Assembly: GCA_041481445.1 (NCBI GenBank)
Contig: JBGPBV010000016.1
Span: 12,432 to 76,431, forward strand
DNA length: 64,000 nucleotides
From: Vicinamibacteria bacterium
GTDB lineage: Bacteria; Acidobacteriota; Vicinamibacteria; Fen-336
Direction: 5' to 3'
Positions 24,050-48,181 of the stretch are shown here, in pieces (the first letter of the stretch is position 1; the number at the start of each line of letters is the position of its first letter). The translations under genes were made by a program, and so were the position numbers. The notes beneath the pieces were generated by a model. The model saw nothing but the letters and a program-made list of their open reading frames with translations, had not been told where the DNA came from and did not search any database.

Positions 24050-24841
24050 TTACTGCAAAGTCCGGACACCGGCGGCGGCGCTTTCGATCAGTGACGCGAC
24101 GGCCCGGGGCTGCGACACGAAGATGGCGTGGCTGCCCTTGACCTCGACGACCGTCGAACCCGCGCGCCGGGACATGGCGCGCTGCGCGTCGGGTGGGATC
24201 ATCTTGTCGTCGGTGGCGACCAGGTACCAGCTGGGCTTGGTCTTCCACGCCGGCTCGCTGATGCTGCCGCTCAGCGCGGCCACGCCCCACGGAACCTGGG
24301 AGTCGGCCATGAACGCCGCCCTTTCCACGGCCACGTCCGCCGCGAAGGAGGCGGGGAACTTCGCCTTGTCGAGGAATAGATAGCCGTCCTGCGGCGGCAG
24401 GATCGGCGGCACGGGGGCGCCCGGCACCGGGTCCTTGATGAGGGTGGACACCGACTCGCCCTTGTCGGGCGCGAAGGCAGCGATGTACACGAGCCCCGCA
24501 ATCTTTGGATCGTTCCCGGCTTCGGTAATCACCACTCCGCCGTACGAGTGGCCGACGAGAACCACGGGGCCGTTCTGCGCGGCAACAATGCGCCTGGTTG
24601 CGGCGACATCGTCGGCGAGCGATGTCGTCGGATTCTGAACGATGGCGACGGTGTAGCCGTCCTTCTTCAGGGCGTTGTAGACGGCCTCCCAACCGGAGCC
24701 GTCTACGAAGCCCCCGTGCACGAGAACGACGGTCCTCACGCTCGTCGGATGGCTCGTCTGTGCCATCAGAACCTCGGCCGAACCCAACAGCAACGCAACG
24801 CCGAACACAGCTGCCGCAAACGTTCCTTGCCTCATGACCAA
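24050..24841 (-). CDS. secreted alpha/beta hydrolase
   Basis: Signal peptide. HGG oxyanion motif (VVLVHGGF) and nucleophile elbow GHSYGG. Confidence 0.8.
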   Translation of the reverse strand: MVMRQGTFAAAVFGVALLLGSAEVLMAQTSHPTSVRTVVLVHGGFVDGSGWEAVYNALKKDGYTVAIVQNPTTSLADDVAATRRIVAAQNGPVVLVGHSYGGVVITEAGNDPKIAGLVYIAAFAPDKGESVSTLIKDPVPGAPVPPILPPQDGYLFLDKAKFPASFAADVAVERAAFMADSQVPWGVAALSGSISEPAWKTKPSWYLVATDDKMIPPDAQRAMSRRAGSTVVEVKGSHAIFVSQPRAVASLIESAAAGVRTLQ

Positions 24842-25060: not shown

Positions 25061-25690
25061 CTAGAGCTGGATGATTCCCCGCCGTATCGCGATCGCGACC
25101 GCTTCCGTCCGGTCGCTGGCCCCGAGCTTTTCCATGACGTGCTTGACGTGAACCTTGACCGTCTCTTCGGAGATGAACAGGTGCTCCGCGATATCACGGT
25201 TCCGGTTCCCTCCCGCCACCTGGCGCAGCACCTCCACTTCACGCGCAGTGAGGGTCTCGTCGCTGAGATGCTCGGCCAGGTGAGCCACGATCTCGGGAGG
25301 GATCCGCTTCTTTCCCGCGTGGACCTGGCGGATCCCGTCGAGCAGCTCCTTGGGGGGCATGCTCTTCAGGAGGTACCCGCGCGCTCCCGCCTCCAGGGCG
25401 CGCTGGATCTCGACGTCGCCCTCGAAGGTGGTGAGGATGACGATGCGGGCGTCCGGGAACTCCGAGCGGATCGCCGCCATGGCGTCGATCCCGTTCATGT
25501 CCGGGAGGCGAAGGTCCATCAGCGTGATGTCTGGCCGGTGCTGGCGGAACCGCTCGAGGCCGTCCCGGCCGTTGCTGGCCTCCGCAACCAGCTCCATGTC
25601 GAGCTGGCTCCTGATCATCGCGGAGATCCCCTCGCGCAGGAGCGGATGGTCGTCGACACTGAGGACGCGGATGGGGGCAGTTGCGCTCAT
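25061..25690 (-). CDS. NarL/LuxR-family two-component response regulator
   Basis: ATG at 25690. REC domain (VLSVDDHPLLREG...DITLMDLRLPDM). LuxR HTH (LTAREVEVLRQVAGG.NRDIAEHLFISEETVKVHV). Confidence 0.85.
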   Translation of the reverse strand: MSATAPIRVLSVDDHPLLREGISAMIRSQLDMELVAEASNGRDGLERFRQHRPDITLMDLRLPDMNGIDAMAAIRSEFPDARIVILTTFEGDVEIQRALEAGARGYLLKSMPPKELLDGIRQVHAGKKRIPPEIVAHLAEHLSDETLTAREVEVLRQVAGGNRNRDIAEHLFISEETVKVHVKHVMEKLGASDRTEAVAIAIRRGIIQL

Positions 25691-26526
25691 GGACCTGTCT
25701 CCCGTCGGCTCGATGTGCTGGATTGCTCGTGGAAGGCCGCTGCTTCCGGAACGGAGAGCTCGACCTCCCTGCGGAGGCGCTCGTCGTCCCCGCATCGGAG
25801 ACCGTGGAGCACGCGACGGGCTTCATCGGTCGCGCGTCCCATGACGGCGAGGACCTGTTCGAGACGCGTGCGGTCCGGCGAGCCCTCGGGCAGGTGATTC
25901 ACGGCCAGATGGAGCTGCATCGACACGCTCAGGAATCCCTGGAGGAGCGTATCGTACAGCTCCTGCGCGATTCTCGCGCGCTCCGCCAGCCGTTCGTCCG
26001 AGCGCGCGTCGAGCTCCCGCGCGAGCTGCCGCAAGCGATAGCGGTGGAGACCGACCGCTCCCAGCACCGCCACCGCGAGGCAAGCGACCCAGAACCACGG
26101 GGCCTTCCACCAAGGCGGCGCGCCGTCCCTGACGGTGAGAGCGGCCACCCCGCCTCCGATCCCGGGGAGGGACGGCGTTCGCGCGAGGGGACGGTACTCC
26201 GCATCGACGAGGAGGGCAGCATACTCCGTTCCGAGGTGCGTCGAGCTCCTCCAGGTGGAGTCGGCCTGGATGGCCGTGAAGGGCTGGTCCGCGAACGGCT
26301 GCACGTACCAGTCTCCGCTCCGGGCATAGAGGACGATCCGTTGCCCGCTGCGCGCGCCCGACACCCGGCCCGCGATGGCTCCGAGGCGGACGGTGCCGCC
26401 CTCGTCCGCCGGGGGCACCTGGCTCAACTTGACGACGGGTCCGGCGGCCATCGCCGGCGGACGCGTCCTCGCAAGGAGGATGACGGCGCAGAGGAGGGCG
26501 ATTGTGCTCGCCCTCGGCCACGTCAT
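25687..26526 (-). CDS. membrane pseudo-sensor: periplasmic domain plus TM plus HisKA_3-like dimerisation domain with His->Tyr, and no ATPase domain
   Basis: ATG at 26526 overlaps the upstream TGA (ATGA). The signal/TM, periplasmic domain and second TM are followed by ERLAERARIAQELYD, where the codon is TAC (Y) at the conserved His. The ORF then ends 50 aa later without a HATPase_c domain. Its stop overlaps the response-regulator ATG. Confidence 0.65.
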   Translation of the reverse strand: MTWPRASTIALLCAVILLARTRPPAMAAGPVVKLSQVPPADEGGTVRLGAIAGRVSGARSGQRIVLYARSGDWYVQPFADQPFTAIQADSTWRSSTHLGTEYAALLVDAEYRPLARTPSLPGIGGGVAALTVRDGAPPWWKAPWFWVACLAVAVLGAVGLHRYRLRQLARELDARSDERLAERARIAQELYDTLLQGFLSVSMQLHLAVNHLPEGSPDRTRLEQVLAVMGRATDEARRVLHGLRCGDDERLRREVELSVPEAAAFHEQSSTSSRRETGP

Positions 26527-28208
26527 TCCTTCAGCACCTGGTGCACGAGGGCGATGGCCGTCGATCCCTCCCCCACCGCCGACGCCACCCGCTTCTGGTT
26601 GCCGCTGCGCACGTCGCCCACGGCGAAGACGCCGGGAAGGCTCGTCTCCAGGAGGTGCGGGGCCCTCGTCAGCGGCCACTCCGCCGTCCGCAGGTCGTCC
26701 GGCGAGAGATCGGGGCCCGTCTTGATGAATCCCTTGTCGTCGCGCGTGACGCAGTCCTCGAGCCAGCGCGTGGTGGGCTCCGCGCCCGTCATCACGAACA
26801 CGTGCCCGACGTCGTTTCGCTCCATCACCATCGTCTGGTTGTCGCGCCAGAGCACGGCCTCCAGACGATCGCCGCCCTCGAGGCTCACGATCTCCGCGCG
26901 TGTCCGGAGCTCGATGTTGGGGCTCTGCTCGATGCGGCGGATCAGGTAGCGCGACATGGTCTCCGCCAGCCCGGCCCCGCGCACGAGCATGGACACGCGC
27001 CGTACGGACGTGGAGAGGAACACGGCGGCCTGCCCCGCCGAGTTCCCGCCCCCCACGACCACCACCTCTTCTCCCTGGCAGAGCTGGGCTTCCATGGGGG
27101 TCGCGCCGTAATACACGCCCGCGCCCTCGAAGCGGGCCAGGTCGGCCACGGCCAGCTTCCGATAGGCAGCGCCGGTGGCGATCACGATGGTCCGCGCGGG
27201 CACCGTCGTCCCGTCCTCCAGCTCGATCGAGTAGGGCTTGCGCGTGCAACGAAGGGCCCGCGCCCCCTTGGCCACCGTCACCTGGGCCCCGAACTTCTGG
27301 GCCTGGCTGTACGCGCGCCCGGCCAGCTCCGCGCCCGAGATGCCCATGGGGAAGCCGAGGTAGTTCTCGATCCGAGAGCTCGAGCCCGCTTGCCCTCCGG
27401 GGGCCGTGGATTCGAGGACGAGGACGTCGAGACCTTCGGACGCGCCGTACACGGCCGCGGCCAGACCCGCCGGCCCCGCCCCCACGATGACGGTGTCGCG
27501 CACGTGGGCGTGGTCGATGGGCGCGTTGAGGCCGAGGCAGTCCGCGATCTGCTGGTTGGTCGGGTTGCGGAGGACGGTGCGGCCGCCGCAGATGAGCACG
27601 GGCACGTCCCCGACGCCGATGTGGAAGCGATCGAGGAACTCCTGCGCCTCCGCGTCCTGCTCGAGGTCGATGTACGAGATCGGATGCCCGTTGCGGGTGA
27701 GGAATTCCTTGATGCGGAGGGTGCCCGCGGAATGGCGCGAGCCCAGGAGGACCACGTCCGCGGAGCCGCGGGCGATCAGCTCCAGCCGGCGCAGGATGAA
27801 GGCCCGCATGAGAAGGTCGCTCAGCTCGCTGTCCGTCTGCACCAGCGCCATGAGCTGGGGGCGGTCCACCTCGATGACTTCCCCGCTCTCGCGCGCGCGC
27901 GTCCTGGCCAGACCGCGCCGGCCGGAGAGGATGGCCATCTCCCCCGTGAACGACCCGACTCCGTGCACCACGATGATCTCTTCGGCGTCGCCGACGCCCC
28001 TCACCGTCTCGACGCTGCCGGCGGTGATCACGAAGATCCGCGCGCTGTCGCCCTGCCCGAGAAGGATCTCGCCCGCCTCCACCCGCCGCACCCGCCCGTG
28101 CGCGGCCACCCGCGCGATCTGCGCCGGGGTCAGCCGGGGAAAGACGTGCTCGAGGGGAGAGTTGAGCCGGAGCGTCGTGGTGGCGCCGGCGGTCAGGGCG
28201 CTGGTCAT
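26523..28208 (-). CDS. cyclic-nucleotide-binding domain protein fused to degenerate glutaredoxin-like and thioredoxin-reductase-like (FAD/NAD(P)-binding) domains
   Basis: cNMP-binding beta-roll (GEILLGQGD...FTGEMAIL). Glutaredoxin-like segment with GSRHSAG in place of CPYC. TrxR-like fold (IVGAGPAGLAAAVY, VVVVGGGNSAG, GVFAVGD) where GATPMEAQLC replaces the CATC redox disulfide. Confidence 0.8.
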   Translation of the reverse strand: MTSALTAGATTTLRLNSPLEHVFPRLTPAQIARVAAHGRVRRVEAGEILLGQGDSARIFVITAGSVETVRGVGDAEEIIVVHGVGSFTGEMAILSGRRGLARTRARESGEVIEVDRPQLMALVQTDSELSDLLMRAFILRRLELIARGSADVVLLGSRHSAGTLRIKEFLTRNGHPISYIDLEQDAEAQEFLDRFHIGVGDVPVLICGGRTVLRNPTNQQIADCLGLNAPIDHAHVRDTVIVGAGPAGLAAAVYGASEGLDVLVLESTAPGGQAGSSSRIENYLGFPMGISGAELAGRAYSQAQKFGAQVTVAKGARALRCTRKPYSIELEDGTTVPARTIVIATGAAYRKLAVADLARFEGAGVYYGATPMEAQLCQGEEVVVVGGGNSAGQAAVFLSTSVRRVSMLVRGAGLAETMSRYLIRRIEQSPNIELRTRAEIVSLEGGDRLEAVLWRDNQTMVMERNDVGHVFVMTGAEPTTRWLEDCVTRDDKGFIKTGPDLSPDDLRTAEWPLTRAPHLLETSLPGVFAVGDVRSGNQKRVASAVGEGSTAIALVHQVLKE

Positions 28209-29131
28209 GGAGCGGGTGACGCGGAGGCGTCGTCGAGGAATGCCGTCAGCTCCGGGATCACCTTGGCCGGCGCCTCGTCGATGAGCCAGTGTCCGGACCC
28301 CGGAACGATGACGCCCTTGACGTTGGTCGCGGCCAGGCGTGTCTGGTCGATGAGCCCCTGTCCGGAGGCCTTCTCACCGGTCAGGACGAGGACCGGCATC
28401 GTGAGCGGCGTGCGAGCGAGTTGCGCGAAGTCCTGGGCGTCCTTCTCGAAGTTGCGGAAGTACTCGAAGCCGGCGCGCACGCCGCCGGGCTGGGCGAAGG
28501 CGGCAGCGTAGAGCCGGCGGTCGGCCTCCGAAACGGAATGGTTGCGGTCCGCGGCGAAGTCGTTCCAGAAGTGCTCGAGGTACGTCCGCTCGCGGCCCGT
28601 GACCAGGGCCAGCGGAGTCTCGCCGTAGAAGTGGAAATGCCAGAGGTCGCGCATCAGCCAGACGCTCTTCCAGTCCCCGATTCCGGGAAGGAAGGCGTCC
28701 ATCAACACGAGGCGGTCGGTGCCCGCCGGGAACTGCGCCGCGTACCCGTAGGCGACCATGAGGCCGATGTCGTGGCCGACCACGCTCACCCGATCGAAGC
28801 CAAGCGAGCGCGTGAGCTCGTGGACGTCCACGGCCATGCTCTTCTTGTCGTATCCGCCTTCCGGCTTGGCGGAGTCGCCGGCTCCCCTCAGGTCCGGCAC
28901 GATCACGGTGTGCCGCTGGGCCAGGAGCGGCATGATCGGCCGCCACATGAGTCCCGTCTGGGCGAACCCGTGCAGGAGGACCACGGCCGGGCCCTTGCCG
29001 CCGATCGAGTAGTGCAGCCGGACCCCGTTCACGTCCGCGAACCGCTCCGAGAATCCGGCGGTGGGCGCCGCCTTGGCGGCCGGCGCCGGTGCGGACGCGA
29101 GGAGGACGGCGACGGCCAGGCTCATGAGCAT
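28205..29131 (-). CDS. secreted alpha/beta hydrolase (epoxide-hydrolase / haloalkane-dehalogenase-like)
   Basis: Signal peptide. LLHGF and GHDIGLMVAYGYA nucleophile motif. The stop overlaps the downstream ATG (ATGA). Confidence 0.8.
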   Translation of the reverse strand: MLMSLAVAVLLASAPAPAAKAAPTAGFSERFADVNGVRLHYSIGGKGPAVVLLHGFAQTGLMWRPIMPLLAQRHTVIVPDLRGAGDSAKPEGGYDKKSMAVDVHELTRSLGFDRVSVVGHDIGLMVAYGYAAQFPAGTDRLVLMDAFLPGIGDWKSVWLMRDLWHFHFYGETPLALVTGRERTYLEHFWNDFAADRNHSVSEADRRLYAAAFAQPGGVRAGFEYFRNFEKDAQDFAQLARTPLTMPVLVLTGEKASGQGLIDQTRLAATNVKGVIVPGSGHWLIDEAPAKVIPELTAFLDDASASPAP

Positions 29132-29288: not shown

Positions 29289-30122
29289 CTATGACTTGAG
29301 GAACGCCAGCAGGTCGGCGTTGATGGTGTCGGCCTCGGTCGTGGGCATGCCGTGCGGAAAGCCCTTGTAGGTTTTCAGCGTGCCGTTCCTCAGCAACTTT
29401 GCCGACAGTGGTGCCGAATCGGCATAGGGCACGATCTGGTCGTCATCGCCATGCATCACCAGGACGGGCACGGTGATCTTCTTCAGGTCTTCGGTGAAGT
29501 CCGTCTGGGAGAAGGCGACGATGCCGTCGTAGTGCGCCTTTGCGCCTCCCATCATGCCCTGGCGCCACCAATTCCAGATCACGCCCGGAGAGGGTTTCAC
29601 TCCAGGCCGGTTGTAACCGTAGAACGGTCCAGCCGGCAGATCGTAATAGAACTGGGCTCGGCTGGCGGCGAGCTGTGCCTGAAGCCCGTCGAACACGTCC
29701 TTGGGCAGCCCGCCGGGATTGGCCGGCGTCTTGACCATCAGCGGCGGCACCGCGCTGATGATCACCGCTTTTGCCACCCGGCTTTCGCCGTGGCGGGCCA
29801 GGTAGTGCACCACTTCGCCGCCGCCGGTCGAGTGGCCGACGTGCACTGCCCCCTTGAGGTCGAGATGTGCGGTCAGCGCCGCCAAGTCGTCGGCGTAATG
29901 ATCCATGTCATGCCCGCCACCGGTCTGGCTGGAGCGGCCATGGCCGCGCCGGTCATGGGCGATGACGCGATAGCCGTGCGCGAGGAAGAACAGCATCTGC
30001 GCGTCCCAATCATCCGCGCTCAGCGGCCAGCCGTGGCTGAAGACGACGGGCTGCCCCTTGCCCCAGTCCTTGTAGTAGATCTGCGTGCCGTCCGTGGTCG
30101 TGATCGTCGACACGTCGTTCAT
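29289..30122 (-). CDS. alpha/beta hydrolase of the non-heme haloperoxidase/esterase family
   Basis: ATG at 30122 ([21 protein letters not shown]). VFSHGWPLS and GHSTGGGEV motifs. Confidence 0.8.
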
Positions 30123-30126
30123 GGCG

Positions 30127-30297
30127 TCATTCCTCCTCGCTGCACGCGGCAGCCGTCTTGACCAGCGCTTTGGCACCGTCCGAACGGCTCACGTAGTTCA
30201 CGACGACGGCAATCCCGTCCGCGGCCAGGCGCTTGGCCACGGAGGAGCCGATGCCCCCGGACGCGCCGGTGACGATTGCGACTCTCGCATCACTCAT
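30127..30297 (-). pseudogene. N-terminal fragment of a short-chain dehydrogenase/reductase (SDR)
   Basis: MSDARVAIVTGASGGIGSSVAKRLAADGIAVVVNY... Rossmann segment runs into a stop after about 57 codons, 4 nt before the next gene start. Confidence 0.5.
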
Positions 30298-30685: not shown

Positions 30686-32341
30686 TCAGACGCCGGCCGA
30701 CTCCAGGGCCCGGCCCACGATGGCCTGCGCCTCGCTCAAGATCGCGTCGAGGTGGGCCTGGCTCCGGAAGCTCTCCGCGTAGATCTTGTACAGGTTCTCC
30801 GTACCGGAGGGGCGGGCCGCGAACCAGCCGCTGGGGGCGACCACCTTCAGGCCGCCGATCGGCGCGTCGTTGCCGGGAGCGCGCGTCAGCTTGGCCGTGA
30901 TCGGCTCGCCCGCGAGCATCGAGTCCTTGACCGCCTCCGGCGACAGCTTCTCCAGGGTGGCCTTCTGCGCGGGGGTGGCCGGAGCATCGATGCGCGCGTA
31001 GTACGGCGTCCCGAACTCCTCGGTCAGCGCGCGATAGCGCTCGCCGGGGTCCCGGCCCGTCCGCGCCGTGATCTCCGCGGCGAGCAGGGCCATGATCAGC
31101 CCGTCCTTGTCCGTGGCCCAGGCCGTGCCGTCCTGCCGGAGGAAGCTCGCCCCGGCGCTCTCCTCGCCGCCAAAGCAGTACGAGCCGTCGAACAGATGCG
31201 GCCCCAGCCACTTGAATCCGACCGGCACCTCGGACAGGCGCCGGCCGAGCTTCGCCACCACGCGGTCGATCATGCCGCTGCTCACGAGCGTCTTCCCCAC
31301 CGCCGCCCGCGCCGGCCATGACGGCCGATGGGTCAGCAGGTACTCGATGGCGACGGCCAGGTAATGGTTCGGGTTCATCAGACCCGCGCCGGGAGTCACG
31401 ATGCCGTGCCGATCGGCGTCGGGATCGTTGGCGAACGCAAGCCGGTACCGATCCTTGAGGCCGACCAGCCGGGCCATGGCGTACGGACTGGACGGGTCCA
31501 TGCGGATCCGGCCATCGTGATCCACGGTCATGAAGGAGAACGTCGGGTCGATCGCCGGGTTGACCACCGTGATGTCCAGCCCATAGATGGAATTGATCGG
31601 CTCCCAGTACGGCAGCGACGCGCCGCCAAGAGGATCGACCCCGAGCGCCAGCTCGGCCCCGCGGATGGCGTCCATGTCCACGACGTTGCGAAGGTCGCGG
31701 ACGTACGGCAGCACGAAGTCGGCCTCCTGGGTCGTGTCCGCCCGCATGGCCTCCGCGAACCCGATTCTCCTCACGCCGGCGTTGCCTTCGCGCAGCAGCG
31801 CGTTGGCGCGGTCCTGTATCCAGCGGGTGGCGCCGGTGTCGGCCGGCCCGCCGTCGGTCGGGTTGTACTTGAAGCCGCCGTCTTCCGGCGGATTGTGCGA
31901 GGGGGTCACCACGATCCCGTCCGCGAGGCCTGACGTGCGCCCGCGGTTGTACACGAGGATGGCCCGCGAGATCACCGGCGTCGGCGTCACACCGTCGTCC
32001 GGCTGGATGATGGTGGACACGCCGTTGGCAGCCAGGACCTCCAGCGCCGTGCGCTGCGCCGGCCCCGAGAGCGCGTGCGTGTCCTTGCCCATGTGGAGCG
32101 GCCCGTCGGTGCCCTGGCCTCGCCGGTAGTCGCAGATGGCCTGGGTGACGGCGAGGATGTGCGCTTCCGTGAACGAGCCGCGCAGCGACGAGCCCCGGTG
32201 CCCGCTGGTCCCGAAGGCGACGAGCTCGCGCGGATCGCTCACGTCCGGCGTACGCTCGTAGTACGCGCGTACGAGCCGCACCGGGTCCATCAGCAGCTCC
32301 TTCGGGGCGGGCCGGCCGGCCAGCGGGGAGATCGCGCTCAT
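30686..32341 (-). CDS. pgm: phosphoglucomutase, alpha-D-glucose-phosphate specific
   Basis: 551 aa collinear with E. coli-type Pgm. Active-site TSGHRGSS, metal loop DPDADR, sugar-binding GEESAG. Confidence 0.9.
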
Positions 32342-32348
32342 GGCGACA

Positions 32349-34826
32349 TCATGGCACCGGGCACGGCGTGACGTTCCAGATCTCGGCCGCGTACTCCGCG
32401 ATGGCGCGGTCGGACGAGAACCGGCCCGACCCCGCCACGTTCAGGATGGCCCGGCGCGTCCATTCCTCGGGGGTGGCCCAGAGCGCGGCCAGCCGCCGGT
32501 CGGCCTCCAGGTACGACGCGAGGTCGGCGAGGTGCATGTAGGGCTCGCCGCGGAGGAGGAGGCCGTCGCGCATTGGTGCGAAGAGGCCGCGCTCACCGGG
32601 GCTGAAGTGGTCGGAGGCGATGAGGTCGAGGGCCGCCCGCGTTTCCGGCTCCCGGTCGTAGTGCCAGCGCGGGTCGTACCAGTCGCGGCTGGCCGCGACC
32701 TGCGACGCGGTCAGGCCGAAGAGGAAGAAGTTCTCCTCGCCCGCCTCCTCCGCCATCTCGATGGTGGCGCCGTCGCGGGTGCCGATGGTCAGGGCGCCGT
32801 TCATCATGAACTTCATGTTGCTGGTGCCGCTGGCCTCGTACCCCGCGGTGGAGATCTGGTTGGAGACGTCGGAGGCCGGGATCAGCCGCTCCGCCAGCGA
32901 CACCGAGTAATCGGGGAGGAACACGACCTTGAGCCGGCCGCGCACGGCGGGGTCGCCGTCGATGGTGGCGGCCAGGTTGTTGATGAACTTGATGTTGAGT
33001 TTCGCGGTGTGATACGCGGGCGCCGCCTTGCCCCCGAAGAGGAACGTCCGCGGGGCCATCTCTCGATTCGGTTCCTCTCGCAGGCGGTTGTAGAGGACGA
33101 CGATGCGCAGCGCGTTGAGGAGCTGCCGCTTGTATTCGTGGATGCGCTTGACGTGGCAGTCGAAGACCGAGTCCGGGTCCACCTTCAGTCCGTGCTGCGA
33201 GGTGAGCCAGCCCGCGAAGCGCGCCTTCGCTTCGCGCTTGGCGCGGCGGAAGTCCTCCCGGAAGCCGGGGTCGTCGGCCAGGGGCGAGAGCTTGCGCAGC
33301 TCGCCCAGCTCGGTCGTCCAGCCCTCGCCGATGGCGCCGGTTATGGCGCGAGAGAGGGCCGGGTTGGCCAGCCGCAGCCAGCGCCGCGGCGTGACGCCGT
33401 TGGTCTTGTTGCCGAAGCGCTCGGGGAACATCTCGGCCAGGTCGCGGACGGTCGTCGTGCGCAGGAGGGTGGAGTGGATCGCGGCCACGCCGTTGGTGCT
33501 GTGCGAGCCCACCACGGCCAGGTTGGCCATGCGGACGTGCTTGCCGGCGCCTTCCTCGACCAGGCTGATCCGGGCCACGCGCCCCTCGTCGCCGGGGAAC
33601 CGAGCCCCCACGTCGTCGAGGAGCCGCCGGTTGATCTCGAAGACGATCTCGAGGTGGCGCGGCAGCATCAACTCGAACCACGCCAGCGGCCATTTCTCGA
33701 GCGCCTCCGGCAGGAGGGTGTGGTTCGTGTAGCCGAGCGTCCGCTTGGTGATGTCCCAGGCGTCGTCCCAACCCAGGCCGGCTTCGTCGAGGAGGATGCG
33801 CATCAGCTCGGGCACGGCCAGGGCCGGATGCGTGTCGTTGAGCTGGATGGCCGCCTTGTCCGGAAGCGCGGCCCAGTCCGCGTTGCCACGCCGGAAACGG
33901 CGCACGAGGTCGCCCAGAGAGCAGGCCACGAGGAAGTACTCCTGCAGGAAGCGCAGGCCCCTTCCCTGGGTGGTGGAATCGTCGGGATAGAGCACACGCG
34001 TGAGCGACTCGGCGGTGAGCGTCTCCGCCAGCGCCCCCACGAAGTCGCCGCGGCTGAATTGCTGGAAGTCGAAGTAGTCGGGGGTCCCCGCCATCCACAG
34101 CCGGAGCGTGTTGATGTTCTTTCCTCCGTAACCGACGACGGGGCGGTCGTAGGGGATCCCGAGCAGCGTCGACGGCCGGCCCACGATGGGGCGGAGCTCG
34201 CCCGCGCGCAGCTCGAACGAGCAGCCCAGCCGCACCTCGACCGCTTCCTCCGGCCGCACCACGCCCCAGGGGTCCGGCCGGCGCAGCCAGTTGTCCGGCT
34301 GCTCGAGCTGCCAGCCGTCGCGGATCGTCTGCTTGAAGATCCCGTACTGGTAGCAGAGGCCGTAGCCGATGGCCGGGAGCTGCCGGGTGGCCATCGATTC
34401 CATGTAGCACGCGGCCAGCCGGCCCAATCCGCCGTTGCCCAGCCCGGCGTCCGGCTCCTCCTCGAGCAGCGCCGTCCAGTCGAGCTTCCTCTCGGAGACC
34501 GCCTCGCCGATGACGGGATCGAGGAGGAGGTTCTGCACGTTGTGGGCGAGGGAGCGCCCGATGAGGTACTCCATCGAGAGGTAGTAGATGCGCTTGGCGT
34601 TCGCGAGCTCGTAGGTCTTCTCCGTGCGCACCCAGCGCTGGGACAGGATGTCACGCACCGAGCGGGCGAAGGCCTCGAAGCGCTGGCGAGGGTCCGCCGT
34701 GGCCGGATCGATCACGTCGTCGAAGAGGAGGTGGCGCTCGTAGAGCGCGTGGTCGGCCCCCGTGAGCGCCACCGGGCCGCATCCGTAGCGCTCGGCGAGG
34801 TCGGGGGCGGGCCTGACGCCGCTCAC
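32349..34826 (-). CDS. glgP: glycogen/maltodextrin phosphorylase (GT35)
   Basis: About 825 aa. PLP-site region [28 protein letters not shown] and many family blocks. GTG start at 34826 overlaps the zwf stop (GTGA). The upstream part of the ORF is artefact. Confidence 0.9.
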
Positions 34827-36178
34827 GACGCCACCGCGGGATCCTGCCAGCCTCCGGGCGGCGTCACGCTGGGTGAGGTGGGGCCCCAGGTGCCCGGGTC
34901 GTATTCGGTGGGAGCCGTCGTGGGCCTCAGCACCGGCTCGACGATGCGCCACGCCTCCTCGACGTAGTCCTCTCGCGCGAAGAAGGTGGCGTCTCCCGCC
35001 AGCGCGTCCCCGAGCAACCGCTCGTAGGCGTCCATCTCTTCCGGACCCGGGTGGTGGCTGGCCAGCATCTCCACGACCTCGCTCCCGCCTTCCTGCCCCG
35101 AAGGGATCGCGTTGGCACCGATCGCGATCGTGATGTCGGGGCTGATGCGCATCCGGCAGTAGTTCGCCTTCAGGGGGAAGTCCGCGAACATCGTCGGGGG
35201 CTGCCGCCAGCGGACGACGATCTCCGTGCAGGTCACGGGAAGGCACTTGCCGGCACGGAGGTAGATCGGGACGCCCTTCCATCGCCAGGAGTCGACCTCG
35301 AGCCGCAGGGCCGAGAACGTCTCGACCCGGGAATCACTGGCCACGCCCGGCTCGGAGCGATACCCGCGGAACTGGCCGCGCACGACTCGCGCCGGATCGA
35401 GAGGAGGGACGCCCTTGAGCAGCCGCACCTTCTCGTCCCGGATCGACTCGCTGTCCGTCCGGATCGGCGGGTCCATGGTGAGGTTGGTAAGGAGCTGGAA
35501 GAGGTGGTTCTCCACGACGTCGCGGATGGCGCCGGCCTCCTCGTAGAAGACGCCCCGCCCCTGCACGCCGAAGCTCTCCGCCATCGTGACCTGCACGCTC
35601 TCGACGTGGCCGCGGTTCCAGACCGGCTCCAGGAACGCGTTCGCGAAGCGGAAGAAGAGCATGTTCTGGACCGGCGCCTTGCCCAGGTAGTGGTCGATGC
35701 GGAAGATCGACTTCTCGGGGAAGCAGCGGAGCAGGATGGCGTTGAGCTCTCGCGCCGAGGCCAGGTCGCGGCCGAAGGGCTTCTCGACGATGACGCGGGC
35801 GCCTTCGAGGCAGCCCTTACGGTTGAGCTGATCCACCACGACACCGAACTGTGATGGCGGAATGGCGAGGTAATAGGCGGGACGCTGCGCGGAGCCGAGC
35901 TGCCGGCGAATGGCCTGGAACGTGGCGGGGTCTCCGTAGTCGCCGCGGACGTAGCGGAGGAGTCGGGACAGCTTCTCGAACGCGGCCGGATCGACGCCGC
36001 CGTGCCTCACCAGGCTCTCCCGAAACCTGGGCTGGAACTCTTCGACCGGCCGCCGGCCGATGCCGATGACCGGCACGTCGAGGCGGCCCCGCTTCACCAT
36101 CGCCTGCAGCGCCGGGAAGATCTTCTTGTAGGCGAGATCCCCGGTCGCGCCGAAGAAGACGAGCGCGTCGGACTTCAC
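34823..36178 (-). CDS. zwf: glucose-6-phosphate 1-dehydrogenase
   Basis: NADP site [15 protein letters not shown] signature and EKPFGRD motif. Confidence 0.9.
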
Positions 36179-45716: not shown

Positions 45717-47081
45717 TCAGGGGCCATGGCCAGACGCGGCGAGCGGCTCTCGACGTGCCTGGGAGACATCGTGCGCCAGCGCCTTCAGGGCGTCCGCGTA
45801 GATCTCCGAGAACGTCGGGAAGGGCTGGATCACGTCTCTCAGCACATCGAGAGGCACACGGGCGCGGATGGCCAGCGTGGCCTGCTGCAGCCACTCGCCG
45901 GCCTCGGCGCCCAGCGCGTAGGCGCCGGTGAGCCGGTCGCCGTCGCTGAGCAGGGTGAGGAATCCATTGTCCTCGGCGTAGGCGCGCGAATAGGTGGCCG
46001 TCCTCGCCACCGCCGACAGGCGGGCCGTCCCGCGGAAGCGCGCCTCCGGCGCCCCCACCGCCGCCGCTTGCGGCTCCGTGAAGACCACACGCGGTACCGC
46101 TTCGTAGTGGGCCTCACGCGACTCGCCGAGGATGTTCGCGGCGACGATGTCGGCCTGGTACTTGCCGACGTGGGTCAGCAACCAGATTCCGTTGACGTCG
46201 CCGACGGCCCAGAGACGCTCACCCGCGCGCAAACGCGCGTCGACGGGGATCCCGTGTCCGTCGGCCTGGATTCCCACGTTCTCCAGACCGAGGCCGGCGA
46301 CCCGCGGGCGACGGCCCGTCGCGACGAGGAGGCGGTCGCCGCGCACCTCGCGGCCATCTCCGAGGGCCAGGACGTAGTCCTCGCCTTCGCGTCGCGCCGC
46401 CGTGACCTTCGCGCCGAGGACGAGCTCCACTCCCTCGCGACGCAGGACCGCGCCCAGCGCCTCGCCCAGCGGGGCCGGCTCCCGGGCGAGGACCCGCTCC
46501 GCACCCTCCACCACGACGACCTCACCCCCGAAACCACGGACCGCCTGCGCGATCTCGACGGCGACGGTTCCGCCGCCGAGCACGAGCAGACGGCGCGGAA
46601 CCACCTTCATGCCGGTCGCCTCGCGGCTGCCCCAGACGCCGTCGAGCTCGCGCAGGCCCGGCACCGGCGGCACGACCGGCTCCGAGCCCGTCGCGACCAC
46701 GATGTGCTCGGCGGTGTAGCGGACGCCGTTCACCTCGACCGCACCGGTGCCCGCGATCCGGCCGCGGCCGCGCAACAGGTCGATGCCCGCGCCCGCCAGC
46801 CAGCGGACCTGGCCCGCATCGGAGTAGTCCGAAACCATGACGTCGCGCCAGGCCAGCGCGGCCGGGACGTCCACCTCTGCCCTCGCCGCCGCCTCCCGCG
46901 CCGCCCGCGCCGCCTGGCCGGGACGCAGCAGCGTCTTGGAAGGGATGCACGCCCAGTAGGAGCATTCGCCTCCCACCAGCTCGCGCTCGACGACGGCCAC
47001 GCGCAGGCCGCCCTCCGCCAAGGCGCCGGCGCAGTGCTCGCCGGCCGGCCCGCCGCCGATGACGATGACGTCGTAGTGCAT
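45717..47081 (-). CDS. class-I pyridine-nucleotide-disulfide FAD oxidoreductase (dihydrolipoamide-dehydrogenase/glutathione-reductase family)
   Basis: ATG at 47081 ([15 protein letters not shown]). Redox-active [13 protein letters not shown]. Second Rossmann [13 protein letters not shown]-terminal dimerisation domain. Confidence 0.85.
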
Positions 47082-47107
47082 GACGCCTCCTCCAGGACGC
47101 GAAGGGC

Positions 47108-48181
47108 CTAGTCGATCCGCAGGCTTTGTTCCATCGAGTAGCACTGGTCCCAGACGTAGATGTCGAAGGCGGCGAGCCTGGCCGACCACTTCGGCGTCAG
47201 CCGCTCGACGCACTGCGCCGCCACCCGGTCGATGTAGTTGTCGAAGACCGCCCACGGGTTCGACTTGTCGAGCGGATTCAAGCCCTCACCGGGCTTGGTG
47301 GTGGCCAGGGCCGTGCCCGCCGCCTGCTTCACGTCCGCATAGAATTGCGCCTGCACGTCCACGTCGGCATGGGTACCCGTACGCGCGACATGGCCTCCCA
47401 CCAGCGTGTCCCAGTCCATCTTGCGGATCTCTTCCACCTGGGCGATGGAGCGTTGTACGTCCTGAGCCACCGCGAAACGACGCCACGGCATCCAGCCCGG
47501 GAAGACCACGTCGACGACCATCAGCACCCGCTGGGCGGGCGCGGAGATGAAGATGTTGCCCGGCTCGTGTGCATTGCCGTGGTACGAGAGCTCGAGCACC
47601 TGGCTGCCGGCGCGGAGGGTATAGCGGTCGGCGAACGTCACCGTGGGCAGGGGCCGGTTCGGATCGGCCGCACGCTTGAGCAGCCGGAGGGTTTCCTCGT
47701 GCGCGATGACGACGGGATGACCGCCGAGGGCCTTGATGCCCGCGATGTGGTCGGTGTGCGAATGGCTGTAGACGACGTGCGTGATCGGCCGGTCGGTGAC
47801 CTCGGCGATGGCCTGCGGAATGTGCGCGGCGTAGCCCGGGGGCGCGTCGATCACCACGACACCGCTCTCGTACACCAGGAACATCGACTGGTACGCGCCG
47901 TCCGTGACCATGTAGAGGCCCTTGCCCAGGTCCTGGCGGCGATAACCCTTGGCGGGGTCGATGGCCGGCCCCTGGGCCGAGGCGGGCACGTCCATGTACT
48001 TGCCGATTCTCACCCCGATCGGGGCGATCGCGGGCATGCCCGGGTAGGGTTCCCCGGCTGCCCCCGGGACCACGGCCGAGTCCGCGGAAGCGGCGTTCGT
48101 CGTCGCCGCGGGTCCGTTGAGGACGGCGAGGGCCACCGCCAAGGCCAACACGCCGGCGCCGAGCTTGATCGTCGTCGTCAT
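47108..48181 (-). CDS. secreted metallo-beta-lactamase-fold hydrolase
   Basis: A GGAGGA RBS precedes the ATG at 48181. Signal peptide. HSHTDH zinc motif. Confidence 0.8.
   Translation of the reverse strand: MTTTIKLGAGVLALAVALAVLNGPAATTNAASADSAVVPGAAGEPYPGMPAIAPIGVRIGKYMDVPASAQGPAIDPAKGYRRQDLGKGLYMVTDGAYQSMFLVYESGVVVIDAPPGYAAHIPQAIAEVTDRPITHVVYSHSHTDHIAGIKALGGHPVVIAHEETLRLLKRAADPNRPLPTVTFADRYTLRAGSQVLELSYHGNAHEPGNIFISAPAQRVLMVVDVVFPGWMPWRRFAVAQDVQRSIAQVEEIRKMDWDTLVGGHVARTGTHADVDVQAQFYADVKQAAGTALATTKPGEGLNPLDKSNPWAVFDNYIDRVAAQCVERLTPKWSARLAAFDIYVWDQCYSMEQSLRID

Follow-up and report, generated by a model that had tools for sequence, protein, structure and literature searches.

Can a protein built like a thioredoxin reductase (TrxR) still work as an enzyme once both of its disulfide centres have gone? 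The question is raised by a gene on the minus strand of a 64,000-nucleotide stretch of Vicinamibacteria bacterium DNA (contig JBGPBV010000016.1 of assembly GCA_041481445.1; hereafter the window), whose product joins a cyclic nucleotide monophosphate (cNMP)-binding fold, a cysteine-poor thioredoxin (Trx) fold and a TrxR-like module for flavin adenine dinucleotide (FAD) and NAD(P)H that carries no CxxC (Table 1). The initial annotation, made from the sequence alone, proposed that the protein, able to sense nucleotides but dead as a disulfide enzyme, acts as a sensor or scaffold and not as a reductase. The comparative data presented here point elsewhere: it is probable, though far from settled, that the protein functions as an NAD(P)H-dependent FAD oxidoreductase under the control of a signal and belongs to a large CxxC-less family, and of a regulated enzyme and a dead scaffold the former is more likely.

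A three-domain flavoprotein with intact cofactor sites

The gene region has a G+C content of about 70%, the same as the remainder of the window, and its product divides into the three parts first proposed for it. Pfam places cNMP_binding (PF00027) at residues 41-126 (E 8e-13, 48.6 bits against a gathering threshold of 27.5) and Pyr_redox_2 at residues 238-548 (E 1.5e-31), while the Glutaredoxin (PF00462) match at residues 165-211 falls short of its cutoff (18.2 bits against 22.9, E 0.003). A profile of residues 148-232, built from 40 diverse relatives, matches Mycobacterium tuberculosis mycoredoxin-1 (2LQO) at E 1.5e-9 and glutaredoxin-like thioredoxins at about 1e-4, and an AlphaFold2 model built from 138 sequences (mean pLDDT 92.7, pTM 0.89) has a beta-alpha-beta-alpha-beta-beta-alpha Trx fold at residues 152-225, with S160 just ahead of helix 161-172. 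The middle domain is glutaredoxin-like, with its CxxC replaced.

None of the curated family models in the NCBIfam scan covers the whole protein. The best of them, the TrxB equivalog TIGR01292, scores 210.3 bits against a cutoff of 343.45; the AhpF model TIGR03140 scores 149.6 bits against 502.9 and covers only the TrxR part, and membership of the YpdA/Bdr group was rejected at 59.5 bits against a TIGR04018 cutoff of 339.9. When the protein was compared with solved structures using phmmer, low-Mr TrxRs matched at E values of about 1e-38 and TrxR-type ferredoxin-NADP+ reductases (FNRs) at 1e-13 to 1e-7, on which grounds membership of the latter group was also rejected.

Foldseek searches of the PDB with the model gave AhpF the best E-values (1.6e-33), over 441-464 aligned columns; these alignments are about 110-130 columns longer than those to TrxR only (about 330) and the match therefore reaches N-terminal to the TrxR module. 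Superposition on TrxRs in the flavin-reducing (FR) state bore out the TrxR fold read in the initial annotation, at template modelling (TM) scores of 0.90-0.94: Lactococcus lactis 5MH4 gave 0.94, with a root-mean-square deviation (rmsd) of 2.1 Å, and the Escherichia coli TrxR-Trx complex 1F6M gave 0.90. Foldseek superposed 3CTY and 3R9U at 0.91-0.93, and structures in the flavin-oxidising (FO) state fitted poorly (1TDE and 5MJK, TM 0.62-0.65, rmsd about 7 Å). A model closest to the FR state would have its nicotinamide site facing the flavin and the former disulfide helix (residues 371-376, C377) facing outward; in a real TrxR, thioredoxin docks at the outward-facing disulfide helix. Relative to low-Mr TrxRs, about 20 residues are inserted between about 497 and 520.

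The cofactor sites are intact. Re-translation returned the FAD and NAD(P) motifs initially reported (GAGPAG, GGGNSAG and VFAVGDVR), and in the 138-sequence alignment the invariant residues comprise G243, G245, P246, G248, G271-G272-Q273 and E281-N282 at the FAD site, G386, N389 and A391-G392-Q393 at the NAD(P)H site, and also R410, M418, Y421 and L422. Conservation of at least 90% extends to Y367, E373, P203, the GD motif and the KRVA..AVGEG helix. In a manual ungapped alignment to E. coli TrxB, the TrxR motif HRRxxxR, presumably the 2'-phosphate site as in established TrxRs, becomes VRGAGLA and R410 is its sole survivor. The family signature, G-V-Y-Y-x-A-T-x-x-E-A-x-x-C ... GGGNSAGQAA ... R ... 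MSxYL, is complete in the protein.

Both CxxC centres are replaced throughout the family

HMMER alignments to solved TrxRs (7JYP, 2Q7V, 5UWY) set YYGATPMEA opposite xYCAxCDG, so that the CATC position of TrxR is occupied by GATPMEAQLC, as initially read, and holds neither cysteine. G368 and the Met preceding E373 stand opposite the two TrxR cysteines, with a one-residue insertion at P371, and E373 falls opposite the TrxR acid catalyst Asp (D139). The glutaredoxin-like segment had likewise been described as lacking CxxC, and in the profile alignment S160 and T163 of SAGT lie opposite the two cysteines of CGYC in 2LQO. The caveat that a differently placed CxxC might have been overlooked can be set aside, as C..C occurs nowhere in the protein.

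Homologues that retain CxxC, which the initial annotation proposed looking for, did not turn up: the motif is absent from both sites in all of about 260 relatives, drawn from 120 close matches and 150 representatives of 50%-identity clusters. Two relatives have a lone Cys at position 368. At the glutaredoxin site the close homologues read SxxT (81/111), CxxT (24/111) or AxxT (5/111), with other variants among the representatives, and the consensus at the TrxR site is G-V-Y-Y-[AG]-A-T-x-[LVMI]-E-A-x-L-C. Across the sequences compared, loss of CxxC is a fixed trait of the whole family and not local decay.

That family is large. A homologue search returned at least 8000 candidates at E <=1e-10, the best 120 of which are 67-92% identical to the protein over more than 97% coverage and are about 558 aa long; such close homologues are labelled 'thioredoxin reductase (NADPH)' by JGI and 'FAD-dependent oxidoreductase' by NCBI. 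Among 50%-identity representatives, searched exhaustively, 3370 proteins reached E <=1e-30, and the top 150 of these are all family members, at 37-67% identity. Scanning one genome per species produced 510 relatives. The best 80 of the 510, at 60-70% identity, come from Acidobacteriota (Vicinamibacteria, Blastocatellia, Thermoanaerobaculia and others), Gemmatimonadota, several proteobacterial classes, Verrucomicrobiota, Chloroflexota, Eremiobacterota, Rokubacteria, Eisenbacteria, Binatia, Nitrospirota-like lineages and Nitrososphaeraceae archaea. In all, the family is present in at least 10 bacterial phyla and in the Nitrososphaeraceae.

Plasmids and chromids contributed 151 records by tblastn, including replicons of Rhizobium, Rhodococcus, Ralstonia, Paraburkholderia, Cupriavidus, Streptomyces and Deinococcus, some of which carry up to 5-6 family copies; NCBI names some of these plasmid members 'cyclic nucleotide-binding domain-containing thioredoxin-disulfide reductase'. 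Over residues 20-561 the protein is 47% identical both to its Cupriavidus metallidurans counterpart and to Rhodococcus WP_088899720. In metagenome-assembled genomes (MAGs) of archaeal ammonia oxidisers, the family gene is 63-66% identical to the bacterial one, which implies horizontal transfer between domains, and the gene for the zinc-finger protein zf-UBP, discussed below, is mostly not adjacent to it. The archaeal loci belong to Nitrososphaeraceae and related Nitrososphaerales (L004, L009, L020, L022, L026, L027, L029, L038, L050, L059) and to MAGs labelled Thermoproteota (L024, L052).

A pseudogene or lineage-specific decay was rejected on the identity of 60-92% across phyla and the invariant cofactor motifs, and the ORF (open reading frame) is an intact gene under selection, not a chance frame. 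A family that has lost CxxC throughout but keeps its cofactor sites, R410 and E373 with little or no variation looks like one of functioning enzymes. Loss of CxxC need not mean loss of catalysis, since TrxR-type FNRs (Bacillus subtilis YumC 3LZW, Chlorobaculum tepidum 3AB1) and YpdA/Bdr are likewise TrxR-fold flavoenzymes that operate without it, YpdA depending on a single conserved cysteine, although these proteins have neither sensor nor Trx-fold domains and are distant from the one studied here (PDB E 1e-13 or weaker). A redox-dead pseudoenzyme would be expected to sense the FAD/NAD(P)H redox state, a nucleotide or both, and to serve as a scaffold or regulator feeding the HisKA_3-only protein and LuxR-type regulator encoded beside it; the disappearance of both canonical CxxC centres suits such a role, but the invariance of the hydride-transfer apparatus, including R410 and GGGNSAGQAA, does not.

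Remaining cysteines and a published relative

Five cysteines remain: C207, C224, C321, C377 and C486. C377, which stands where the short helix 371-376 of the AlphaFold2 model ends, is found in 111/111 close homologues and in 72/95 diverse full-length representatives, while the other four are features of the subfamily only. C207 occurs in 18 and C224 in 12 of the 95 diverse representatives, and the two keep company (both in 11, one in 8, neither in 76; Fisher p 4.5e-9, phylogeny not corrected for). The initial statement that all redox cysteines had been lost therefore holds for the two canonical motifs and fails for the candidate thiols at large, given a conserved C377 and a co-varying C207/C224.

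These residues allow for a genuine non-canonical thioredoxin or redoxin reductase, in which Cys377 would form a mixed disulfide, with Glu373 as acid/base, that is resolved by the reduced flavin, or in which electrons would alternatively pass by way of C207/C224. Mixed-disulfide chemistry of this kind is used by CoA-disulfide reductase and has been proposed for the bacillithiol-disulfide reductase YpdA.

One member of the family has been purified and assayed. ATII-TrxR, a 552-aa metagenomic protein (Atlantis II site, Red Sea) with a Crp/cNMP domain and a TrxB module, is about 87% identical to Cupriavidus metallidurans CH34 WP_011516654 and was obtained as a dimer with 1.87 FAD per dimer (PMC6544261). 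It is reported to oxidise both NADPH (Km 5.2 uM) and NADH (Km 4.2 uM), to reduce 5,5'-dithiobis(2-nitrobenzoic acid) (DTNB) directly with a kcat of 5.6 per s and to support Trx-dependent insulin reduction with a kcat of 28 per s and a Km of 1 uM; from a homology model, its redox centres were named as Cys206-Cys223 and Cys376-Cys467 (PMC6544261). As numbered there, Cys206, Cys223 and Cys376 correspond to C207, C224 and C377. The C. metallidurans CH34 gene, on the chromid, reads 'YYWASPVEAKLC' and has no C..C, and its product has cysteines equivalent to the same three residues.

ATII-TrxR and WP_011516654 share with the Vicinamibacteria protein the three-part architecture, a length of 552-565 aa, the motif YY-x-A-[ST]-x-x-EA-x-LC and the absence of CxxC, and they belong to the same family; at less than 50% identity they form a separate subfamily. 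In the literature searched for cNMP/TrxR fusions, for UBP-type zinc fingers of bacteria and for the NCBI product name, the ATII-TrxR paper was the only find.

The reported DTNB and Trx data, the C377/E373 pair and the linkage to trxA in actinobacteria favour a single-thiol mechanism in the subfamily of the Vicinamibacteria protein. As an account of the protein as a whole, a thioredoxin reductase nonetheless seems unlikely. It would explain the Trx-dependent insulin reduction and direct DTNB reduction by a family member whose named redox cysteines include the equivalents of C207, C224 and C377 (PMC6544261), the occurrence of trxA immediately upstream of the family gene in plasmid operons of Rhodococcus and Streptomyces, the persistence of C377 and the pairing of C207 with C224 set out above, and the conservation of E373 at the D139 position. 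Yet C377 aligns with Y143 of E. coli TrxR, about one helical turn past C138, and is missing from receiver (REC)-type, giant and some zf-UBP-linked members; C207 and C224 are each confined to a minority of the diverse representatives; no trxA adjoins the family gene in the 80 genome loci compared or in the window; and mutant analysis does not feature in the published assay. The absence of C377 from REC-type and giant members and from two zf-UBP-linked proteins means that a thiol route is not universal and that the chemistry common to the family is flavin-based.

An interchangeable sensor domain with a non-canonical ligand site

The phosphate-binding cassette of the N-terminal domain retains G89-E90. 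In cNMP-binding proteins the Arg-[Ser/Thr]-Ala of this cassette contacts the cyclic phosphate, but in HMMER alignments the Arg and Ser/Thr of PKA RI-alpha and of Bdellovibrio Bd1971 fall on G99-L100, columns at which the family consensus is A/S/T/V/G followed by L/F/V. The neighbouring R97, R98, R102 and R104 are conserved solely in the subfamily of the Vicinamibacteria protein, whose Arg-rich cassette (G-E-M...R-R-G-L-A-R-T-R) differs from the A-E-V...P-A-L of Cupriavidus. Members of the CRP/FNR superfamily that lack this Arg, among them CooA, FNR, PrfA and NtcA, bind other ligands. The nucleotide sensing first proposed for the protein is thus called into question by the missing canonical phosphate-binding arginine, and to judge from its sequence cNMP sensing is somewhat unlikely.

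The sensor is also exchangeable. A Response_reg receiver takes the place of cNMP_binding in three relatives (P0228, P0265, P0269), another (P0249) has the order REC, flavoprotein core and C-terminal cNMP domain, a further one (P0178) is a fusion of Abhydrolase_3, cNMP domain and core, and relatives of 900-1550 aa end in the Trx-fold/TrxR-like module. Input domains that swap on a constant C-terminal module mark the flavoprotein as the regulated output, and this exchange, together with the absence of a DNA-binding or other output domain, counts against a pseudoenzyme. The view of the protein as a sensor or scaffold that is dead as a disulfide reductase is not supported, given the conserved cofactor sites, R410 and E373, the swapping of REC and cNMP domains, and the activity reported for ATII-TrxR; disulfide reductase activity, the result said at the outset to overturn that view, has been reported for a homologue assayed without cysteine mutants and not for this ORF.

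A recurrent zinc-finger gene beside the family gene

Neighbouring genes were counted by targeted tblastn in 80 genome loci of the family, 76 of which had enough flanking sequence, and in 80 metagenomic zf-UBP loci, 70 of which had at least 300 bp upstream. In 27/76 genome loci a zf-UBP gene follows on the same strand, 11-45 bp downstream, and in 33/80 it is adjacent. In the reverse test, the family gene stands directly upstream on the same strand in 29 of the 70 metagenomic zf-UBP loci, including diverged family genes of 38-47% identity, and the next commonest neighbour of zf-UBP occurs in 7 loci. The zf-UBP protein of the window is 70-82% identical to partners that adjoin the family gene in other phyla. 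Its invariant Cys/His ligands are H8, C23, C26, H35, C39, C42, C47, C48, H55, H59, H65 and C80, and a bacterial homologue has been solved (2IDA, E 6e-23), a structural-genomics entry to which no function is assigned. We know of no role for bacterial zf-UBP proteins. The zf-UBP protein is the best candidate for a substrate, acceptor or regulator of the flavoprotein.

Such a partner could point to an enzyme of the FNR or diaphorase type, which would pass single electrons to a metal centre, such as an iron-loaded, rubredoxin-like CxxC...CxxC knuckle of zf-UBP, or to quinones, metals or O2, without any thiol. CxxC-less enzymes of TrxR fold are known in the TrxR-type FNRs, which are among the PDB matches at E 1e-13; the near-universal residues of the former active site are Y367 and E373 only, with no cysteine; the zf-UBP partner has invariant CxxC pairs and His ligands; and the model prefers the FR state. 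This alternative is nevertheless very improbable: the sequence is far nearer to TrxR/AhpF (E 1e-38) than to TrxR-type FNRs, the solved zf-UBP homologue lends no function to the partner, and the DTNB and Trx activities reported for ATII-TrxR indicate thiol chemistry.

A broader proposal, possible if still rather doubtful, is that the family and zf-UBP together constitute an unrecognised two-gene redox module, spread horizontally across bacteria and soil Thaumarchaeota, in which a sensor-gated, dithiol-free flavoenzyme reduces, or is controlled by, a Cys/His metalloprotein acting as a rubredoxin-like carrier or a resettable zinc-thiolate stress switch, the 'cNMP' domain sensing a ligand that is not a nucleotide.

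Other contexts recur on plasmids and near the closest relatives. On Rhodococcus (L082, 4221..6629) and Streptomyces (L083) plasmids the family gene is the last of an operon in the order GrpE-DnaJ-CbpM-ClpB-TrxA-(zf-UBP)-core, and on the Rhodococcus plasmid a DUF1931 gene comes next. The Rhodococcus TrxA has an N-terminal CxxC...CxxC zinc-finger extension that, read by eye, suggests the Trx2 type. In Rhizobium the zf-UBP gene precedes the family gene. Pirin, Na+/H+ exchangers, glucose-6-phosphate dehydrogenase (G6PD), phosphoglucomutase, a Rieske protein, Usp, an AhpD-like carboxymuconolactone decarboxylase, Dps, extracytoplasmic function sigma factors and alpha/beta hydrolases are encoded near close relatives, giving these neighbourhoods a loose stress/redox flavour. 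In three metagenomic zf-UBP loci that lack the family gene (L128, 129..1571, and two others), the upstream ORF has motifs that, by eye, resemble those of a class III nucleotidyl cyclase, and in seven other such loci an uncharacterised protein of about 330 aa is encoded upstream.

The locus in the window

Both ATGA overlaps (Table 1) bear out the initial placement of the gene between a hydrolase and a pseudo-kinase and predict translational coupling of the TrxR-like gene to either neighbour; no promoter-like or minus-strand terminator-like site was found within the run from this hydrolase to the regulator. The HisKA_3-only protein has no ATPase domain. In kinases of the NarX/DesK type the phospho-acceptor motif is ELHD, and the protein may be a degenerate kinase or a phosphatase-like partner of the LuxR-type regulator.

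Coupling to genes for a histidine-kinase-like protein, itself degenerate, and for a response regulator, and the loose recurrence of signalling proteins in other neighbourhoods, are what a pseudoenzyme serving signal transduction would lead one to expect, but the HisKA_3 and LuxR genes are present within 6 kb in only 1/80 and 6/80 loci, respectively. Taken with the invariant hydride-transfer apparatus and with the activity reported for ATII-TrxR, this makes a pseudoenzyme quite improbable, and of the readings considered the pseudoenzyme or scaffold is the least consistent with the data. As conserved partners of the family, the hydrolase (7-8/80 loci), the HisKA_3-only gene and the LuxR regulator were all rejected; the HisKA_3 linkage is lineage-specific and is not a conserved neighbour of the family.

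Three alpha/beta-hydrolase genes surround the locus, all on the minus strand, and the closest relatives (L091, L092, L031) have alpha/beta hydrolases beside them as well, which may reflect a lineage-specific functional link. Further upstream lie genes resembling those for phosphoglucomutase and glycogen phosphorylase, and on the contig of one close relative (L087) genes for G6PD and phosphoglucomutase stand just upstream of the family gene, a partial synteny with genes for sugar-phosphate and NADPH supply. The class-I flavoprotein disulfide reductase encoded elsewhere in the window is ordinary and unrelated, and neither a canonical trxB nor a canonical trxA was found in the 64 kb.

Table 1. 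Features of the TrxR-like gene, of its product and of the surrounding window. Residue numbers refer to the TrxR-like protein.
Feature	Position in window	Strand	Evidence
TrxR-like gene; complete coding sequence, 561 aa, ATG start; cNMP-binding fold, Cys-poor Trx fold and CxxC-less TrxR-like FAD/NAD(P)H module	26523..28208	-	ORF list, Pfam, NCBIfam, homologues, AlphaFold2
CRP/cNMP-binding-fold sensor domain, residues 22-146, ending in long C-helix 127-146	27771..28145	-	PF00027, alignments, AlphaFold2 secondary structure
Mycoredoxin/glutaredoxin-like Trx-fold domain, residues 150-228, cis-Pro P203 retained	27525..27761	-	Profile match to 2LQO, weak PF00462, AlphaFold2, Foldseek
SAGT, S160-T163, at position of CxxC in redox-active glutaredoxin/mycoredoxin	27720..27731	-	Alignments, re-translation
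Low-Mr TrxR/AhpF-like flavoprotein module, residues 236-561	26526..27503	-	TIGR01292 (below cutoff), solved TrxRs, Foldseek
FAD-binding GAGPAG, residues 243-248	27465..27482	-	Re-translation, 138-sequence alignment
Former disulfide site YYGATPMEAQLC, residues 366-377, at CATC position of TrxR	27078..27113	-	HMMER alignments, AlphaFold2, re-translation
NAD(P)H-binding GGGNSAG, residues 386-392	27033..27053	-	Alignment, re-translation
R410	26979..26981	-	138-sequence alignment, hand alignment to E. coli TrxB
C-terminal FAD motif VFAVGDVR, residues 527-534	26607..26630	-	Alignment, re-translation
Alpha/beta hydrolase with N-terminal signal-like segment; stop overlaps start of TrxR-like gene (ATGA)	28205..29131	-	ORF list, Pfam
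Membrane protein, HisKA_3 only, ELYD for ELHD; start overlaps stop of TrxR-like gene (ATGA)	25687..26526	-	ORF list, Pfam
NarL/LuxR-type response regulator; start overlaps stop of HisKA_3-only gene (ATGA)	25061..25690	-	ORF list, Pfam
Alpha/beta hydrolase between regulator and zf-UBP gene	24050..24841	-	
zf-UBP zinc-finger protein, 89 aa	23748..24017	-	PF02148 E 5e-11; 2IDA E 6e-23
Alpha/beta hydrolase	29289..30176	-	
Resembles phosphoglucomutase	30686..32341	-	Translation alone
Resembles glycogen phosphorylase	32349..35282	-	Translation alone
Class-I flavoprotein disulfide reductase with redox motif	45717..47255	-	

Discussion

The protein can be placed among known flavoproteins by what it keeps and what it has lost. 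With low-Mr TrxB (E. coli 1TDE/1F6M, L. lactis 5MH4) it shares the two-domain fold, the GxGxxG, GGQ, EN, GGGxxA and GD motifs and an acidic residue at the D139 position; it differs in having no CATC disulfide, in the apparent reduction of HRRxxxR to one Arg and in about 235 extra N-terminal residues that make up two domains. Covalent joining of a Trx-fold domain to a TrxR-like module is also found in AhpF and NTRC, but the N-terminal part of AhpF comprises two Trx folds with a CxxC, in addition to the CxxC of its TrxR module, whereas the protein described here has a single Trx fold and neither CxxC, and in addition carries a sensor domain and has no AhpC partner. Its middle domain resembles mycoredoxin-1 (Rv3198.1, 2LQO) and NrdH-like redoxins in being a small Trx fold with the cis-Pro and a '...L-x-N-P-[ST]' segment; unlike mycoredoxin-1, it has S-A-G-T in place of CGYC and is fused between a sensor and a reductase-like module.

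A model of a gated flavoenzyme can be constructed from these likenesses. The ancestor of the family would be a low-Mr TrxR module joined to a redoxin domain in the manner of AhpF or NTRC, and both of its CxxC relay centres were probably replaced long ago, one by SxxT and the other by YY-x-A-T-x-x-E. FAD would be reduced by NAD(P)H, while the N-terminal domain would bind some ligand, probably something other than a canonical cyclic nucleotide, whose effect, transmitted through the C-helix and the catalytically silent Trx fold, would gate access to the surface of the flavin/NADPH domains. Electrons would then leave for a protein acceptor, passing straight from the flavin or else, within the cNMP-type subfamily, by way of Cys377 with Glu373, a single-cysteine route that may be likened to that of single-cysteine flavoprotein reductases. 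The likeliest acceptor or partner would be the small Cys/His metalloprotein zf-UBP, and on actinobacterial plasmids it may instead be the adjoining Trx2-type thioredoxin. Gene contexts suggest that the enzyme may serve in a stress response.

Several observations tell against a working enzyme of this description. There is no conserved cysteine pair for classical disulfide exchange, and C377, the remaining candidate thiol, is not found in 23 of the 95 diverse representatives or in 2 of 24 zf-UBP-linked family proteins, and variants of the REC and giant types lack it as well. The zf-UBP gene adjoins the family gene in no more than about 40% of loci, and in the window it lies 2.5 kb downstream, with three intervening genes (the HisKA_3 gene, the regulator and a hydrolase); the stress-response role is drawn solely from gene neighbourhoods that vary. 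Moreover, the reported activity belongs to ATII-TrxR, a relative less than 50% identical to the protein, and was assayed without cysteine mutants, the sections consulted describing no controls (PMC6544261). Its authors class ATII-TrxR as a high-Mr TrxR and do not mention the missing CxxC (PMC6544261). This is a misclassification, and together with the lack of mutants and the unnoted loss of CxxC it means that the claim of Trx-reductase activity needs confirmation.

The protein itself is nothing out of the ordinary: an intact member of a family already annotated in databases, with one superficial biochemical paper to its name. Four points, all drawn from comparative evidence, do not appear in the searchable literature: loss of CxxC across the whole family, lack of the cNMP arginine in its sensor domain, interchange of that domain with a receiver, and genomic coupling to a bacterial zf-UBP protein.

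Thousands of proteins of this family carry the labels 'thioredoxin reductase (NADPH)' or 'thioredoxin-disulfide reductase' without the cysteine pair that defines such enzymes. Should the Trx and DTNB activity reported for a relative be real, an undescribed route for electrons leads out of the TrxR fold; should it not be, annotations are wrong across many soil phyla, on replicons of Cupriavidus, Rhodococcus, Rhizobium and Streptomyces, and in ammonia-oxidising archaea. Swappable sensor domains, a recurrent zf-UBP partner and the chaperone/thioredoxin operons of actinobacteria provide testable handles on function, and make the family a reasonable target for redox biochemists.

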